From: Candidatus Saccharimonas sp. | GTDB lineage: Bacteria; Patescibacteriota; Saccharimonadia; Saccharimonadales; Saccharimonadaceae | DNA length: 32,000 nt | Assembly (NCBI GenBank): GCA_015256915.3 | Contig: CP076101.2 | Span: 60,001-92,000 of the forward strand | Direction: 5' to 3' | In this document: positions 24,641 to 32,000 of the stretch, one piece after another | Position numbering within the stretch: the stretch's first letter is position 1 | How the letters are laid out: every line of letters starts with the position of its first letter | The notes under the pieces: generated by a model | Told to the model about the DNA's origin: nothing | The model's database searches: none | Seen by the model: only the letters and a program-made list of their open reading frames with translations | Program-made: the position numbers and the translations under genes

Positions 24641-24668
24641 AAAGTGGCTTTCGAAAGCCACTTTTATT
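24640..24668. terminator. bidirectional terminator, perfect palindrome AAAAGTGGCTT-TCGA-AAGCCACTTTT
   Basis: 11-bp arms with A/T runs on both sides. Lies between the convergent pilin gene and the recombinase gene. Confidence 0.85.
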
Positions 24669-25581
24669 CTGTTTCGCTGTGAAATTTCTCGTGAATTTCT
24701 TTTAAATGTTGGTCAGTGATATGTGTATAGATTTGTGTTGTTGCAATACTGGCGTGGCCAAGCATTCCTTGCACTGAGCGCAAATCCGCACCATTTACGA
24801 GTAAATCTGTTGCAAAAGAATGTCGCATTGTGTGGGGTGAAACGTGTTTTGTAATTCCGGCAAGTTTTGCGTATTTTTCAACCATTCTTTGCACCGAACG
24901 TGGTGTAATTCGCCGATAATTTCCATCAGTTGAAGGTTTCTTGTATCGCCGCGAATAATTTAAAAATAATGGTTGCAAGTTGTCATTTCGAGCGTCTAAA
25001 TAATTTTCGATATGCTCTGCGGCTTTTTTCGAAATAAAAATTGGTCGGTCTTTGTTTCCTTTTCCGCGAACGGTAAATTCACGCCGCTTTGTATTAATGC
25101 TTCCACGGTTTAAATTTACAAGCTCAGAAACACGCAAACCGCTTGAAAAGAGTAATTCCACAATTGCGCGGTCTCGTAAATCACTTTCGGTTTCATTTGG
25201 AATCTCAGCAATTAAACGCTCGATTTCTTCATAATGCAAAAAATTAACTTGTGGCTTTACAATTTTTGGTAGCTCAATTTTTGAAGGTTCCAAGCTTTTA
25301 ATGTCGCGCCGAGCAAGATAAGTTAAAAATCTTCGAAGGGCAATTAAGTGATAAGCTTGTGTAGCTCGCCCTAAATCTTTGCCGAATTCATTTTCGTAAC
25401 GATTAAGCCATAAACGATATTTTCGAACTAATTCTGAGGTAATTTCTTTTGCTGGAATATCGCCCGCAAATTCAACAAATCGCTCCAAATAAAGTCGATA
25501 ATTCTCGGCCGTCTTTTTCGAACGACCGCCTTCAACTTCAAGCGATTCAATAAAATCTTCAATTCCTTCGGAAATATACAT
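24664..25581 (-). CDS. XerC/XerD-family tyrosine recombinase
   Basis: SAM-like N-domain. C-terminal HTMRHSFATDLL...LGHASIATTQIYTH (R-H-R-Y catalytic pattern). Confidence 0.85.
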   Translation of the reverse strand: MYISEGIEDFIESLEVEGGRSKKTAENYRLYLERFVEFAGDIPAKEITSELVRKYRLWLNRYENEFGKDLGRATQAYHLIALRRFLTYLARRDIKSLEPSKIELPKIVKPQVNFLHYEEIERLIAEIPNETESDLRDRAIVELLFSSGLRVSELVNLNRGSINTKRREFTVRGKGNKDRPIFISKKAAEHIENYLDARNDNLQPLFLNYSRRYKKPSTDGNYRRITPRSVQRMVEKYAKLAGITKHVSPHTMRHSFATDLLVNGADLRSVQGMLGHASIATTQIYTHITDQHLKEIHEKFHSETE

Positions 25582-26200: not shown

Positions 26201-26277
26201 GCCTCGGTAGCTCAATTGGATAGAGCAGTTCCGTCCTAAGGAAAAGGTTATAGGTTCGATTCCTATCCGGGGTACCA
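26201..26277 (+). tRNA. tRNA-Arg (anticodon CCU), CCA encoded
   Basis: Hand-folded cloverleaf: acceptor GCCTCGG/CCGGGGT, D arm GCTC..GAGC, anticodon loop gTCCTaa, T arm ATAGG-TTCGATT-CCTAT. Confidence 0.85.
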
Positions 26278-27936: not shown

Positions 27937-28014
27937 TTGGCGCGCCCGACCGGATTCGAACCGGCGATCTCCTCCGTGACAGGGAGGCGTACTAGGCCAA
28001 CTATACCACGAGCG
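27937..28014 (-). tRNA. tRNA-Asp (anticodon GUC), CCA encoded
   Basis: The reverse complement folds as acceptor GCGCTCG/CGGGCGC, anticodon stem CCTCC/GGAGG with loop cTGTCac, T arm GCCGG-TTCGAAT-CCGGT. Confidence 0.85.
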
Positions 28015-28032
28015 CATCAGTAGACTAATACA

Positions 28033-28112: not shown

Positions 28113-28188
28113 GCCGATGTAGCTCAGTTGGTAGAGCAACGCACTCGTAACGCGTAGGTCAGCAGTTCAATCCTGCTCATCGGCTCCA
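28113..28188 (+). tRNA. tRNA-Thr (anticodon CGU), CCA encoded
   Basis: Acceptor GCCGATG/CATCGGC, D arm GCTC..GAGC, anticodon loop cTCGTaa (A31-C39 mismatch), T arm AGCAG-TTCAATC-CTGCT. Confidence 0.85.
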
Positions 28189-28200
28189 ATTTATTTTTTT

Positions 28201-28572
28201 ATGAAAACAATAGTTAATTTATTTAAACCAATTCTAAAAGACCGTAAAATGTTAATTTTGATGGCTTCTGTATTCATGTCTGGAATTATTTTCTTTATTT
28301 TTATGATTTTGAATACAAAATCATATGACTATCTTTTGAACGTGCGTTATACAGTTTTTGGAGCTAGTGAGTTTTATAAAGATTCCTGGACTTATCGTGT
28401 TGTTTTGGCTATTTTTGGTCTAATTATTTCATTTATTCATAATATTATTATCGCAAAAATTTATAACATTTCTGGTAGGCGTGCGGCTGCAGTTTTTGCA
28501 ATTTTTAGTATTATTCTTGTTCTGGTTGGTATAATAATTATAGGCACTTCAATTCGTGAGATTCCAAACTAA
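28201..28572 (+). CDS. small polytopic membrane protein (3-4 TM), coupled to the downstream glycosyltransferase
   Basis: 123-aa hydrophobic ORF. TAATG overlap with the next gene. Confidence 0.5.
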   Translation: MKTIVNLFKPILKDRKMLILMASVFMSGIIFFIFMILNTKSYDYLLNVRYTVFGASEFYKDSWTYRVVLAIFGLIISFIHNIIIAKIYNISGRRAAAVFAIFSIILVLVGIIIIGTSIREIPN

Positions 28573-30260
28573 TGAGCAAGAAAGTTGATATTGAAATTCC
28601 ACTTGGAAAGCGAACTTTTAAATATCGCTTTTTCGAAATTCTGCCAGCTTTTTTGAGTTTTGGTGCAATTATTTTAATGTTTATACTTTCGGCTTTTTCT
28701 CCTTTTTTGGCATCTCTTTATCTTTTAACGATTATCACAACTCTTCTTGTTAAGGCAATTGGAATTGCCTATCGAATGATAACGGGTCATCTTCAGATTG
28801 AAAAAGCTCAAAAAGTTGATTGGAATAAACGTCTAAATGAGCTTGAGAATGCTGAAAAATCTTTAGATATTCTCAAAAATCAGAGAAATAATGAATATGA
28901 GTTTAAAAACCATCTTCAGAATTTGAATGATATTATAGAAAATCCAGCTAGCTTTCCAAAGTCATCAAAGGTGAAAAATGCGGTAATTATTGCAGCTTAT
29001 AATGAGCCTTATGAAGTGATTCAGCCAACTATTCAATCTGTTTTGGCTTCAAATTATGATGCAAAAAACTTGCTAATTTTTTTGGCATATGAAGAGCGGG
29101 GCGGTGAAGAAATTGAAAAAACTGCAATTAGGCTTAAAAAAGAATTTTCGAAAAGCTTTGGTGTTTTTGAAATTGTGAAACACCCAAAAAATCTACCAAA
29201 TGAAGTTGTTGGGAAGGGTGGAAATATTACTTTTGCTGGGCGAGCGCTTCAAAAATATTGTGAAAACAATAAAATTCATTTCGAAAATGTACTCGTTACA
29301 ACGCTTGATAGCGATAATAAGCCGCATAAGGAATATTTTGCTTGCGCAACTTATAGTTTTATTGTTCATGAAGACCGTAAAAGACTTTCGTATCAGCCAG
29401 TTTCGTTATTTTTGAATAATATTTGGGATGTTCCAGCTCCAATGCGTGTGGTCGCAACTGGCAACTCATTCTGGAATATCGTTTCAACAATGCGGCCGCA
29501 TCTTTTACGAAATTTTGCTTCACACTCACAACCTCTTGATGCTTTAGTTGAAATGGATTTTTGGTCAACTCGCACAATCGTTGAAGATGGTCATCAATTT
29601 TGGAGAAGTTATTTTCATTTTGGTAGCGACTATTATGTGGTGCCGATTCGTGTACCAATTTACCAAGATGCGGTTCTAAGTGAAACTTTACCAAAAACGC
29701 TCAAGGCACAGTTTATTCAGCTTCGTCGCTGGATGTACGGAGCAAGCGATATACCATATGTTGCTAATTTATACTTTTCGAAAACTCGCAATGTGCCAAT
29801 TGTTGATGGCTTAATGAAACTTATTCGCTTGATCGATGGTCATGTAACAGCTGTTTTTCAATCACCAATGGCTGCCTTTGGCGGTTGGGTACCACTGATT
29901 GTTTATGCTGCTTCTTCTCGTAGCGTGATTGTGCATCAATTACCAAATGTGATTAGTACACTTCAGCAAGTTGCAACTGTGGGGATTTTTATCACAATCT
30001 TGATTAGCTTAAAAATGCTACCGCCACGCCCAGAACGCTATAGAAAACGCCGTTCTTTATGGATGGTTGCGCAGTGGGTTTATATGCCTGTAACTTCAAT
30101 ATGTTATAACGCAGCAGCAGCAGCATATTCACAAACTCGTTTAGCATTCGGTAAATATCTTGATAAATTTGATGTTACTGAAAAAGGGCGAATTGAAGAT
30201 GTTGAACGTGCGAAGGCTGAAAGAGCTAAAAGACGAGCTTTAAAGAAGCAAAAAAAATAA
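28572..30260 (+). CDS. integral-membrane family-2 glycosyltransferase, processive synthase type (cellulose/chitin/PNAG-synthase-like)
   Basis: Motifs IIAAYNEPYEV, TTLDSDN, VEDGHQFW and QLRRW (QxxRW), flanked by N- and C-terminal TM helices. Confidence 0.75.
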   Translation: MSKKVDIEIPLGKRTFKYRFFEILPAFLSFGAIILMFILSAFSPFLASLYLLTIITTLLVKAIGIAYRMITGHLQIEKAQKVDWNKRLNELENAEKSLDILKNQRNNEYEFKNHLQNLNDIIENPASFPKSSKVKNAVIIAAYNEPYEVIQPTIQSVLASNYDAKNLLIFLAYEERGGEEIEKTAIRLKKEFSKSFGVFEIVKHPKNLPNEVVGKGGNITFAGRALQKYCENNKIHFENVLVTTLDSDNKPHKEYFACATYSFIVHEDRKRLSYQPVSLFLNNIWDVPAPMRVVATGNSFWNIVSTMRPHLLRNFASHSQPLDALVEMDFWSTRTIVEDGHQFWRSYFHFGSDYYVVPIRVPIYQDAVLSETLPKTLKAQFIQLRRWMYGASDIPYVANLYFSKTRNVPIVDGLMKLIRLIDGHVTAVFQSPMAAFGGWVPLIVYAASSRSVIVHQLPNVISTLQQVATVGIFITILISLKMLPPRPERYRKRRSLWMVAQWVYMPVTSICYNAAAAAYSQTRLAFGKYLDKFDVTEKGRIEDVERAKAERAKRRALKKQKK

Positions 30261-30261
30261 G

Positions 30262-30288
30262 TACTCTGAAAAGGGTATTTTATTTTTT
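30262..30288 (+). terminator. rho-independent terminator after the GT2 gene
   Basis: TACTCT-gaaa-AGGGTA (one G-U pair, GNRA-type loop) followed by TTTTATTTTTT. Confidence 0.6.
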
Positions 30289-30479
30289 GGCTTAATATTC
30301 ATGAAATTTAAAAGCGGCCAATTTGACCGCCTGATGTAGGAGCATTTGTAAGATTTTCTTAAACCTTACCAAAAAATCGTTTGTCGTTTGGGTGACAAAA
30401 GGGAATGTGCCAATATGAATGTAACAGAGGATTACTAGAAAAACTTTCATTTTTTATAGTTTTTTATTTGCCCAAACCT

Positions 30480-30519
30480 GATTAGACTTTTTCCGAAGTC
30501 TAATCTCGTTTTTTATTTT
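30480..30519 (+). terminator. strong rho-independent terminator with no ORF upstream of it
   Basis: GATTAGACTT (30480-30489) pairs with AAGTCTAATC (30496-30505), 10 bp, followed by TCGTTTTTTATTTT. Confidence 0.75.
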
Positions 30520-30588
30520 ACAGCGTTTTATTTAAAAAAGCAAGCATAATTACGATATTGAGTGTCTTTTTTTTGAAAGTTAAAAATT

Positions 30589-30665
30589 TTGTTCGCTTTT
30601 TAATAAAATTGAGTTTTTGAAAATAAAACATTTCACACGAAAGTCAAACTCAAAAAAGCGAACAA
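30589..30665. repeat. imperfect inverted repeat
   Basis: TTGTTCGCTTTTT..TGAGTTT (30589-30617) against AAACTCAAAAAAGCGAACAA (30646-30665). Read directly. Confidence 0.7.
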
Positions 30666-30840
30666 CCCAAAATAAATATCTCACCAAATGAATAAAAATT
30701 TTCGAAAGCTAAAAACCAGCTTGTGGAAAAGCTTTGATGGAATGTGTAAAACTAAAAACACCATAACGCTATATGTAGTTAAGAAAAAAAGAACAAAAGT
30801 TGTAAAATCTATTGAGTTTTTTGCAAAGAAGTTGGTTTTT

Positions 30841-30849
30841 TGATATAAT
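30841..30849 (+). promoter_or_regulatory. extended -10 promoter TGATATAAT, about 210 nt upstream of the methyltransferase start
   Basis: Same consensus as the other promoters in the window. Confidence 0.55.
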
Positions 30850-30853
30850 GATA

Positions 30854-31059
30854 GTGTTCTAAAATATTATAAATATAAAGCAGACTTTCGAAAAAGTTAT
30901 TTTTTGCGTATTTGAGCCTTAGATAGGGCACTCTACGCGAATCATATTTTGTTGGCTCAATTGGGTCTGCTATAAATATTTTAGAACACTTCGCAAGGAG
31001 TGTCCTATTTTATTTATAGTAAAAATGAAAATCCTTTTTCGAAAAAGAAAGGATTTTTC
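30854..31059 (+). promoter_or_regulatory. long structured 5' leader or cis-regulatory RNA candidate
   Basis: 15-bp perfect helix 30854-30868/30975-30989, extended by 30880-30885/30965-30970. Inner helix 30912-30918/30954-30960. Interleaved helix 30923-30941/30990-31008. Hairpin 31028-31037/31048-31057 covers the SD-like AAAGGA. Confidence 0.5.
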
Positions 31060-32000
31060 GTGGCGAATAAAAATCTCACACGAGCAAAAAAGGTCAAAAA
31101 TGATGAATTTTATACACAATACGATGATATTGAGAAGGAGTGTGAAAGGTATCGTGACCAATTTTATGGCAAAATAATTTACTGTAATTGCGACGACCCT
31201 GAAAATAGTAATTTCTTCTTATATTTTGCGAATAATTTTAAGTTTTTTGGCTTAAAGAAACTTATAACCACTCATTATGATTCTGAAAGGCCAACTTATA
31301 AACTGGAACTAACAGAAGAAATGATTGAAGACGGCGCCGTAACTGCTGAATGTGCCAAGAAAACTCTGCTCAAGGGTAACGGAGATTTTCGCAATCAAGA
31401 GAGTATTAAATTATTAAAAGAAGCCGATATAATCATAACTAATCCACCGTTTTCACTTTTTAGAGAATATATCGCTCAATTGATTAAGTATGGAAAGCAA
31501 TTTTTAATTATGGGAAATAATAACTCAATCACCTATAAAGAGATTTTTAAATTAATAAAAGAAAACAAAATTTGGCTTGGTTATGATGTTAATAAAACTA
31601 TGGAGTTTGCTTTAAGTGATAGTTATGAGAAATGGAGTCGTATAGAAAATGGTGTAAAGTATGGAAAAGTTCCTGCAATATCTTGGTTTACGAATCTTGA
31701 AACAGATAAACGCCATCAGGAGTTGATTTTATATAAAAAATATACCGCTGAAGAATTTCCGAAATATGATAATTATGACGCAATTGAAGTTTCGAAAGTT
31801 GTTGATATTCCGCAAGATTATGACGGTGTTATGGGTGTACCAATTACTTTTCTTGATAAATTCAATCCAGATCAATTTGAATTAATAGGCTCTAATCGTT
31901 GGGTTGGTCAAGACGAAGACGGAGTGTATGGTAGAAGTTCGTATTTGAATGGAAAAGAAACTTTTAAAAGGCTATTTATAAAGAATAAGAAAGTGAGTAA
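31060..32000 (+). CDS. N6-adenine DNA methyltransferase, EcoRI-methylase-like family (3' end beyond window)
   Basis: Hand translation is open from GTG 31060 to the window end (313 codons, no stop). N-terminal RAKKVKNDEFYTQYDDIEKE and YCNCDDPENSNFF. Catalytic DIIITNPPF (motif IV). VMGVPITFLDKFNPDQFEL. Absent from the ORF track because it has no in-window stop. Confidence 0.75.
   Translation, partial: MANKNLTRAKKVKNDEFYTQYDDIEKECERYRDQFYGKIIYCNCDDPENSNFFLYFANNFKFFGLKKLITTHYDSERPTYKLELTEEMIEDGAVTAECAKKTLLKGNGDFRNQESIKLLKEADIIITNPPFSLFREYIAQLIKYGKQFLIMGNNNSITYKEIFKLIKENKIWLGYDVNKTMEFALSDSYEKWSRIENGVKYGKVPAISWFTNLETDKRHQELILYKKYTAEEFPKYDNYDAIEVSKVVDIPQDYDGVMGVPITFLDKFNPDQFELIGSNRWVGQDEDGVYGRSSYLNGKETFKRLFIKNKKVS

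Follow-up and report, generated by a model that had tools for sequence, protein, structure and literature searches.

In this study, we investigated a stretch of 32,000 nucleotides from a Candidatus Saccharimonas species (assembly GCA_015256915.3, contig CP076101.2, positions 60,001 to 92,000; hereafter the window, with position 1 as its first letter), and in particular the leader that precedes an EcoRI-family N6-adenine methyltransferase gene beginning at GTG 31060. Judging from compensating mutations in relatives, the folded RNA ahead of this methyltransferase gene and its partner nuclease gene is real and has been retained, and its layout looks like that of a three-tier transcription attenuator followed by a hairpin that would occlude the ribosome-binding site (RBS). 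We lean, if only slightly, towards the reading that the leader is a self-contained multi-helix transcription attenuator, combined with a translational block, for a two-gene restriction-modification operon.

Helices of the leader

The leader lies in an 800-nt non-coding gap between a glycosyltransferase gene (28572-30260) and GTG 31060, and all of its features described here are on the + strand. For comparison, contigs with the same locus were retrieved by means of the neighbouring glycosyltransferase protein, which gave many metagenomic contigs where the leader is identical, while the methyltransferase, used as query, returned 160 loci from GTDB genomes and JGI metagenomes, to which the closest protein clusters added further ones. 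Six distinct orthologous leaders were obtained in this way, namely those of the window, L169, L007/L170, L089, L171 and L167/L168, with methyltransferases in the five others that are 71-92% identical to that of the window. The five further leaders are found on Saccharibacteria-type contigs, one of them labelled Saccharibacteria, and the gene order glycosyltransferase, leader, methyltransferase (M), nuclease (R) and thrS is common to the orthologous leaders, all but the short contig L089.

The minimum free energy (MFE) of 30854-31070 was -62.9 kcal/mol, against -39.2 +/- 4.2 kcal/mol for 200 dinucleotide shuffles, none of which folded as well, so that the folding check proposed with the original prediction gave a clearly structured RNA (RNAfold MFE z = -5.6). 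All the helices listed in that prediction occur in the sequence at the coordinates given for them. The closing stem, P1, is perfect and in fact consists of 16 bp (30853-30868 with 30975-30990) rather than the 15 first described; the last four nucleotides of its 3' strand, ACAC (30986-89), are also used by a second hairpin, T. Above P1 stands P1b, in which GCAGAC (30880-30885) pairs with GTCTGC (30965-30970), and between the two the TATA/TATA extension (30874-77 with 30971-74) is present in the window, although it is the sole listed helix that has no counterpart in relatives. A small hairpin, Pa (ACUUU-CGAA-AAAGU, 30884-30897), is conserved neither in sequence nor in form, as the relatives display a GCG-U6-CGC hairpin instead. 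Further inside, the P2 5' strand UUGAGCC (30912-30918) pairs with GGCUCAA (30954-30960), and the 3' strands of P2 and P1b together take up 30954-30970. The loop of P2 holds segment B (AUAGGGCACUC UAC GCGAA, 30923-30941), whose partner is either B' (30990-31008) or the 5' strand of a local hairpin, Px. The B:B' helix consists of 11 bp and 5 bp around a 3-nt internal loop, with one G·U pair and a duplex energy of -27.9 kcal/mol, and it crosses P1.

Two elements had been missed earlier, namely Px and hairpin T with its U-rich tract. The 5' strand of Px (30903-30920) contributes UUUGCGUA (30903-10), which pairs with UACGCGAA (30934-41), and GCCUU (30916-20), which pairs with AGGGC (30925-29); the hairpin locks segment B away and overlaps the 5' strand of P2, so that P2 and Px exclude each other. 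Px belongs to the RNAfold MFE structure, with a local fold of -13.6 kcal/mol here and of -13.5 to -23.1 kcal/mol across all six leaders, and it was chosen over P2 by RNAfold in four of the six. Hairpin T (30986-31003), which was found in the terminator scan, is composed of ACACUUC (30986-92), a GCAA loop (30993-96) and GGAGUGU (30997-31003), has a local fold of -10.4 kcal/mol, and places its 3' half within B'. All six leaders have a hairpin in this position, built from different sequences and with energies of -8.8 to -13.2 kcal/mol. Directly 3' of it comes CCUAUUUUAUUUAU, and the U-rich tract CCUAUUUUAUUUAUAG (31004-31019) directly follows both T and B', with an invariant TATTTTA in the six-way alignment; a hairpin followed by a U-rich tract is hence found inside the leader. 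The original prediction had described a final hairpin, AAAATCCTTT / AAAGGATTTT (31028-37 / 31048-57), burying AAAGGA just before GTG 31060, and this hairpin 2 (AAAAUCCUUU / AAAGGAUUUU, 31028-31057) indeed covers the Shine-Dalgarno (SD) element AAAGGA (31048-53). It reads better as a translation block than as a terminator, for which 30986-31003 plus the U-tract is the better candidate. In all six leaders the SD is paired in an anti-SD:SD hairpin or the start codon is buried in a helix.

Promoter and predicted transcript start

The promoter (30821-30849) is a strong one, made up of a -35 element TTGCAA (30821-26), a 17-nt spacer and an extended -10 element TGATATAAT (30841-49, TATAAT with the TG extension). 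In a consensus scan it reached 10 of 12 matches plus the TG extension, and its end lies 210 nt before GTG 31060. An extended -10 element (TGnTAAAAT or TAGAAT) stands equally far before P1 in all five other orthologous leaders. Since the -10 element ends at 30849, the transcript is predicted to start at about 30854-30856, at the foot of P1, which places the leader between an upstream promoter and the gene, with the start predicted from sequence. The distance of about 210 nt between promoter and start codon, unlike that of other genes in the window, had been pointed out at the outset and was confirmed: an extended -10 element (TGnTATAAT or TGTTAAAAT) ends 5-7 nt before the start codon of genes 458, 2563, 8261, 14363 and 25581(-), for which reason these genes probably give leaderless mRNAs and a leader of about 205 nt is unusual here. 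Classic AGGAG-type ribosome-binding sites are present at genes 10674, 11733, 22304 and 25648.

A transcript starting close to 31060, the alternative named with the original prediction, finds no counterpart in the sequence, as a good promoter was found only about 205 nt upstream, with no second one conserved near 31060. In the six-leader comparison no conserved element was detected between the U-tract and the SD, and the methyltransferase would therefore depend on read-through.

Several other candidates around the leader were considered and set aside. An antisense promoter on the - strand (AGGACA-17-TAAAAT, 31006-30978) has spacings of 17, 17 and 21 nt in the window, L007 and L169, respectively, and is not conserved. 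If the transcript starts at G30854, the window holds a mini-open reading frame (ORF) of two codons, GUG UUC UAA (30854-30862), with the counterpart AUG UCU CAA AAA UAA in L007; the idea of a leaderless mini-ORF at the 5' end, acting in a ribosome-sensed attenuator, was dropped as the other four leaders have no start codon there, and the mini-ORF is probably a coincidence. A 50-aa ORF (31025-31177) and a 51-aa ORF between the glycosyltransferase and methyltransferase genes (30688-30843) were likewise rejected as leader peptide or controller, both being unconserved; the 51-aa ORF, the one of the two that was scanned against Pfam, gave no match.

Conservation and covariation among orthologous leaders

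The search for covariation in homologous leaders, which had been proposed as a check, revealed abundant compensatory change in the five further orthologous leaders. The P1 strand reads GUGUUCUAAA, GUACUAAAAU, GUCUCAAAAA, GUCAUAAAUU (in two leaders) and GCUUUACAAA, and the partner strand is perfect in each case. Eight of the ten basal pairs of P1 change on both sides with 100% of cells paired, and the same double change was seen in all six pairs of P1b, in five of six pairs of P2, where G·U pairs fall on the + strand, and in five of six pairs of hairpin T. For B:B', with a core of 11 and an extension of 4 pairs, 8 of the 15 pairs change on both sides, and 11 G·U pairs on the + strand were counted with no A·C.

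When the helices were registered by hand, with helix segments joined by constant linkers and G·U allowed, 99.1% of cells were paired against 74.3% after shuffling, 27 of the 37 pairs were double-changed, and none of 500 shuffles reached the observed values; sliding the 3' partners reduced pairing to 30-47%. An automatic covariance-model alignment of five sequences gave a similar picture, with 94.9% of cells paired against 67.8%, 20 of 28 pairs double-changed and again none of 500 shuffles as good. Altogether 16 helix wobbles are G·U on the + strand and none is A·C, and the + strand MFE is better than that of the - strand by 7-21 kcal/mol in all six leaders, which argues for an RNA read from the + strand rather than for repeats in duplex DNA. 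A covariance model built from a single sequence, R1, found five of the six leaders at E <= 0.001 (66.5-kb search) and L167 at E = 0.075 (439-kb search), and among 173 loci it matched nothing beyond the six members of the lineage. No conserved unpaired nucleotides were observed in the junctions and loops of the six leaders, whose sequence and length vary, and the middle of the structure differs among them in both sequence and form.

Mutually exclusive folds and the proposed mechanism

P2, Px, B:B' and T form a chain of exclusions in which neighbours share strands: P2 and Px share the 5' strand, Px and B:B' share segment B, and B:B' and T share GGAGUGU. The crossing B:B' pairing had been expected to be either a pseudoknot or an exclusive alternative fold, which was right, since B:B' competes with T and with the local hairpin Px. 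A conserved alternative helix that excludes the terminator candidate, and a further helix that excludes that one, are thus both found. The first fold (P1, P1b, Px and T) is fully nested, while the second (P1, P1b, P2 and B:B') is a pseudoknot, or else has B:B' as a hairpin with P1 open. Constrained folding of three states gave -45.3, -43.9 and -42.2 kcal/mol, a spread of about 3 kcal/mol, and leader by leader, across all six, the combined energy of Px and T (-22 to -33 kcal/mol) comes close to that of the B:B' duplex (-25 to -31 kcal/mol). The original reading as a riboswitch or attenuator therefore stands in its attenuator half, given the competition of B:B' with T and Px, whereas the metabolite-sensing half finds no support, as no conserved unpaired core was seen within the lineage or across phyla.

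In the proposed attenuator, the OFF state would be the first fold, where segment B is locked in Px, B' and the end of P1 fold into T ahead of the U-tract, and most polymerases would stop about 45 nt before the gene. The ON state would be the second fold, where B is exposed in the P2 loop and captures B', so that T is blocked and the polymerase would continue into the methyltransferase and nuclease genes. Hairpin 2 in the read-through RNA would hide the ribosome-binding site, and translation would be damped as well. As the two folds are nearly isoenergetic, a modest input could, speculatively, tip the balance. Also speculatively, the lack of a conserved core of unpaired nucleotides makes a small metabolite a less likely input than a protein (perhaps the methyltransferase or the nuclease encoded by the cassette), the kinetics of transcription or the condition of the transcript's 5' end. 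A metabolite aptamer is further disfavoured by the variable middle and the very long crossing helix.

Similar leaders in distant cassettes

Strong folding, at z of -5 to -12, was also seen in the 200 nt ahead of many remoter EcoRI-family methyltransferases (45-55% identity), from Victivallales, Lentisphaerae, Kiritimatiellae, Bacteroidales, Gracilibacteria and Chloroflexi. Leaders with z < -4 number 25, and every one of them belongs to an M-then-R cassette, with a DUF262-HNH gene after the methyltransferase. At 13 of 144 distant loci, the region 25-130 nt ahead of the start codon contains a T-run directly adjoined by a helix of 9 bp or more whose partner strand lies 30-75 nt upstream, an arrangement seen in 0.1% of shuffles. 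The features shared by these leaders are a long stem just after promoter-like sequence, an apical hairpin containing B and a further hairpin that covers the RBS or ATG; often there is also a local T, the 5' half of which overlaps with the last part of the long stem. In every lineage examined, the SD or the start codon lies under a hairpin. Runs of T5-T7 follow B' in the distant cassettes, matching the U-rich tract. The variable part of P1 covaries among L056, L059, L074, L079 and L030 (UUGGG/CCCAA, AGCAG/CUGCU, AAGAGAA/UUCUCUU and UAACGAA/UUCGUUA). No k-mer was common to 30 structured leaders across phyla except T-runs and subgroup-specific motifs, and the viral methyltransferase relatives (L176-L184) have no structured leader.

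Variants of the arrangement were also noticed. L172:590-2620 encodes a 71% identical methyltransferase in reverse order (DUF262-HNH first), in a different neighbourhood and with no structured leader. In L092:3690-3992 (methyltransferase 62% identical), a short leader follows a TTGACA/TATAAT promoter and holds a terminator hairpin, ACGGAC...GUCCGU plus U6, with the promoter-spacer sequence AACGGATAAATATGA repeated after the terminator; it is a simpler form of the arrangement in which a terminator stands between promoter and methyltransferase. The Gracilibacteria cassettes L047 and L010 have no local T hairpin and a B:B' of 14 bp, and a third copy of the long-stem 5' strand (GUUUGCUUACAAC) occurs after the T-run, about 45 nt before the ATG, so that the 3' strand of the stem can pair with either the transcript 5' end or the downstream copy. 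The Bacteroidales cassettes L040, L066, L036 and L072 harbor a nearly identical 9-bp inverted repeat, GATTGATAG...CTATCAATC, which sits about 10-45 nt before the methyltransferase ATG and ends 1-7 nt before it. Its strong conservation in sequence suggests a putative protein operator in addition to an RNA hairpin. A palindrome, ATAGC(N3-4)GCTAT, stands at the putative promoter of several Bacteroidales cassettes.

Weighing the attenuator against other explanations

A number of points weigh against the attenuator as drawn. Its transcript start, its termination at the U-tract and its read-through are all read from the sequence. Hairpin T has 7 bp and is followed by an interrupted tract (UAUUUUAUUUAU), and may terminate weakly or not at all. 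The ON fold could form only in part, because a B:B' of 16-19 bp needs the threading or melting of P1 and P2. The covariation comes from six distinct sequences of one lineage at one genomic position, the hand-chosen registers with G·U allowed favour structure, and Px is backed by its presence in all six leaders rather than by clean compensatory pairs. Across phyla, the likeness is, on the sequences compared, one of shared architecture and not of demonstrated homology, because the subgroups have no sequence core in common and lie beyond the reach of the covariance model. The opposite polarity would fit the Gracilibacteria and some of the Bacteroidales cassettes, where a local T is missing and it is B:B' that stands ahead of the T-run; since the long-range B:B' abuts a T-run in some distant cassettes, the assignment of ON and OFF is tentative, and it could be reversed in some lineages.

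Among the other explanations, the one that survives best, though we hold it unlikely, is a constitutive element with no switch, where a 5' stem from +1 would protect the mRNA from 5'-end-dependent decay, a weak terminator and the RBS hairpin would fix the nuclease operon at low expression, and the alternative pairings would be by-products of repeats. In its favour are a predicted transcript start that coincides exactly with the base of P1 throughout the lineages, the universal presence of hairpins covering the RBS or ATG, the failure to find either an effector or a conserved binding core, and the need of restriction-modification operons for low, steady expression. However, four exclusive helices are each kept by compensatory change, the competing energies are balanced in all six leaders, and complementarity between B and B' recurs across phyla far above chance. 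With the competing helices all conserved, a reading with one fold only is hard to hold.

Somewhat less probable still is a stand-alone small RNA gene, with the promoter at 30821-49 and an RNA of about 155 nt (30854 to about 31015) that would end at T or at B:B' plus the U-tract and have a role of its own, for example an RNA-antitoxin-like restraint of the nuclease or methyltransferase, the operon being served by leak-through. Promoter, compact fold and a helix plus U-tract are all present, the terminated RNA could be locked by B:B' tertiary pairing, the element is always linked to the M-R cassette, and the gene order RNA, terminator and toxin is known in type III toxin-antitoxin loci. Against this, a second promoter is not conserved between the U-tract and the SD, so that the methyltransferase would depend on read-through; repeat units and cross-phylum sequence, which a conserved protein partner (45-57% identical) might require, are lacking, and the alternative helices resemble an expression platform.

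A new class of metabolite riboswitch, for instance for S-adenosylmethionine (SAM) or its product SAH, in which P1/P2 and the pseudoknot would be the aptamer and T the expression platform, appears improbable to us. A pseudoknot between loop and 3' tail that competes with a terminator, together with a P1 closing stem, is known from several riboswitch classes, and the product of the downstream gene uses SAM. Nevertheless, conserved unpaired nucleotides of the kind that form a ligand pocket were seen neither in the six leaders nor in the 30 structured leaders, where no k-mer is shared across phyla beyond T-runs and subgroup motifs; the middle is variable, B:B' at 16-19 bp is far longer than riboswitch pseudoknots, and no match was obtained to the SAM/SAH classes, all known ones being in Rfam.

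The weakest explanation, which we regard as very improbable, is a DNA-level element whose inverted repeats would serve as operators for a protein, as sites where an invertible or mobile element recombines, or as a single-strand promoter of the Frpo type, active when DNA enters a cell in single-stranded form: the motif AGTGTYCTA occurs four times in alternating orientation, the pair 30970-90 / 30999-31019 resembles a 21-8-21 recombinase core site, tRNA genes and an integrase-family gene lie 2.7-6 kb upstream, and hairpin promoters precede methyltransferase genes on plasmid leading regions (PMC11541004), but the repeats are not conserved in relatives with 71-92% identical methyltransferases and show compensatory change instead, all 16 wobbles are G·T on the coding strand where the RNA folds better, the promoter is outside the repeats, a T-run follows the helices, and the locus is syntenic, not mobile, within the lineage. 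An inverton in particular was rejected, as the leader keeps one orientation, at 99-100% identity, in nine independent metagenomic contigs with no inverted variants and the promoter lies outside the repeats. AGTGTYCTA as a recognition site of a protein or methyltransferase was also rejected, since it is absent as a conserved motif in relatives with near-identical enzymes and its copies covary as helices. TTCGAA/TCGA as a methylation site in the leader was discarded because TTTCGAAA palindromes are common in intergenic hairpin loops of the genome and hence uninformative.

Relation to known RNA families and control systems

No known RNA class had been recognised in the original prediction, and this agrees with our scans: at gathering score, Rfam 15 matched only three tRNAs in the window and only tRNAs in 15 related or analogous loci, and a sensitive scan (E <= 10) of 30400-31300 gave a best hit of 24 bits against a cutoff of 49, with all hits at E >= 0.33, which is chance level. 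We also found no report of a folded cis-leader controlling a restriction-modification operon in the literature searched, itself incomplete.

The closest relatives in layout are three-tier attenuators consisting of terminator, antiterminator and anti-antiterminator, for example the PyrR-controlled pyr leaders of Bacillus subtilis. Like these, the 5' leader here strings together helices that exclude one another and closes with a hairpin plus U-tract, with balanced competing energies, and the upstream-most hairpin (Px here) would decide whether the antiterminator (B:B') forms. Unlike these, it displays no PyrR-type binding consensus and no Rfam match, it has a fourth competitor in P2 and a long closing stem from the first nucleotides that the antiterminator must cross as a pseudoknot, and its operon is a restriction-modification system. 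In pyrG-type antitermination, which serves here as a lead only, the RNA uses its 5' end to pair with the terminator's upstream strand. The leader is similar in that its first nucleotides pair with the 5' half of the terminator candidate, the overlap being ACAC 30986-89 here and 2-7 nt in relatives; it differs in having no homopolymer at the start for reiterative transcription, in the shortness of the overlap, and in B:B' being the main competitor of T.

Fluoride, ZTP and preQ1 riboswitches contain a pseudoknot between a hairpin loop and the 3' tail that forms in competition with a terminator. The leader shares with them the loop-to-tail pairing across a P1-type stem, the tail common to pseudoknot and terminator, and the cis position before the gene, whereas conserved ligand-pocket nucleotides and an Rfam match are missing and the crossing helix has 16-19 bp against 4-8 bp.

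Type II restriction-modification systems are controlled by C proteins with C-boxes, by self-repressing methyltransferases and, in the EcoRI system, by antisense RNAs. The task here would be the same, namely safe levels of methyltransferase and nuclease, and the methyltransferase shares 49.6% identity with M.EcoRI of E. coli plasmids. The partner nuclease, on the contrary, is DUF262-HNH and not R.EcoRI, the cassette runs M then R with no C gene, and the control proposed relies on a folded leader in cis instead of a transcription factor or an antisense RNA. The cassette yielded no ORF for a C protein or another helix-turn-helix protein, nor was a small controller gene with C-boxes seen near R or M, and no gene was called between the glycosyltransferase and M on any orthologous contig.

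Finally, Frpo-type single-strand promoters are long imperfect hairpins in plasmid leading regions, upstream of genes that deal with restriction (PMC11541004, PMC7736820), and methyltransferase genes in these regions have such hairpin promoters upstream (PMC11541004). The leader is alike in being a long imperfect hairpin ahead of restriction-related genes, including a methyltransferase. It is unlike them in having an ordinary duplex promoter upstream of the hairpin, wobbles on the coding strand, a chromosomal syntenic locus, and a U-tract and RBS hairpin after it; a hairpin on the template strand that rebuilds -35 and -10 elements was not observed, the template strand folding 7-21 kcal/mol worse.

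Gene neighbourhood of the cassette

The methyltransferase gene (31060-32000, + strand, GTG start) matches PF13651 at E = 1.7e-116 and continues beyond the window. On full contigs it encodes 314 aa, and the MANKNL... N-terminus and GTG start are kept in all orthologues. The nuclease gene starts 3 nt after it and encodes 364 aa with DUF262 (GmrSD_N) and HNH domains, matching PF03235 and PF01844; thrS is the next gene. No reverse transcriptase, as a retron msr-msd would have, is present among the neighbours (glycosyltransferase, M, R and thrS).

The site GAATTC, cut by EcoRI, occurs 9 times in the window against 17 +/- 4 expected from shuffles, all of which had at least 9; this mild depletion would fit a putative GAATTC-type specificity of a methyltransferase 49.6% identical to M.EcoRI.

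On the 5' side of the promoter, about 600 nt of additional, AT-rich non-coding DNA (30260-30850) contain a terminator downstream of the glycosyltransferase gene (30480-30505 plus a T-run) and a perfect 13-nt inverted repeat (30589-30601 / 30653-30665). In the relatives, three spaced copies of GTGG(A/T)AAAA stand just 5' of the promoter, in a stretch that is better conserved than the helices of the leader. Further upstream, the integrase-family gene mentioned above encodes a tyrosine recombinase (phage-integrase family; 24664-25581, - strand), and the three tRNA genes are Arg-CCT, Asp-GTC and Thr-CGT (26201-26277, 27938-28015 on the - strand, and 28113-28188). A recent insertion is unsupported, because the relative whose contig reaches that far (L007) has the same gene order.

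Significance

Restriction-modification systems become toxic when the nuclease outpaces the methyltransferase, and a leader that alone decides read-through would, if our reading is true, be a new control principle for such systems. It is tentatively possible, and clearly less probable than the attenuator reading for this operon itself, that the leader is a member of an undescribed cross-phylum RNA switch which travels with a mobile cassette of EcoRI-family methyltransferase and DUF262-HNH nuclease, takes the role of a controller protein, senses a cassette product or the state of the host, and sets read-through accordingly. Taken as an attenuator, the leader would stand in a biological setting new to such leaders, and it combines an unusual closing stem with a chain of four helices. 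With about 200 nt and no conserved sequence requirement, the leader would also be a compact and portable part for RNA engineering. It would rank among the few regulatory RNAs described in Patescibacteria, the candidate phyla radiation (CPR), in a window where most genes are probably leaderless, and, if the cross-phylum reading is true, it would be the first known cis-acting RNA attenuator of a restriction-modification system, in Saccharibacteria, Gracilibacteria, Bacteroidales and Lentisphaerae/Kiritimatiellae.

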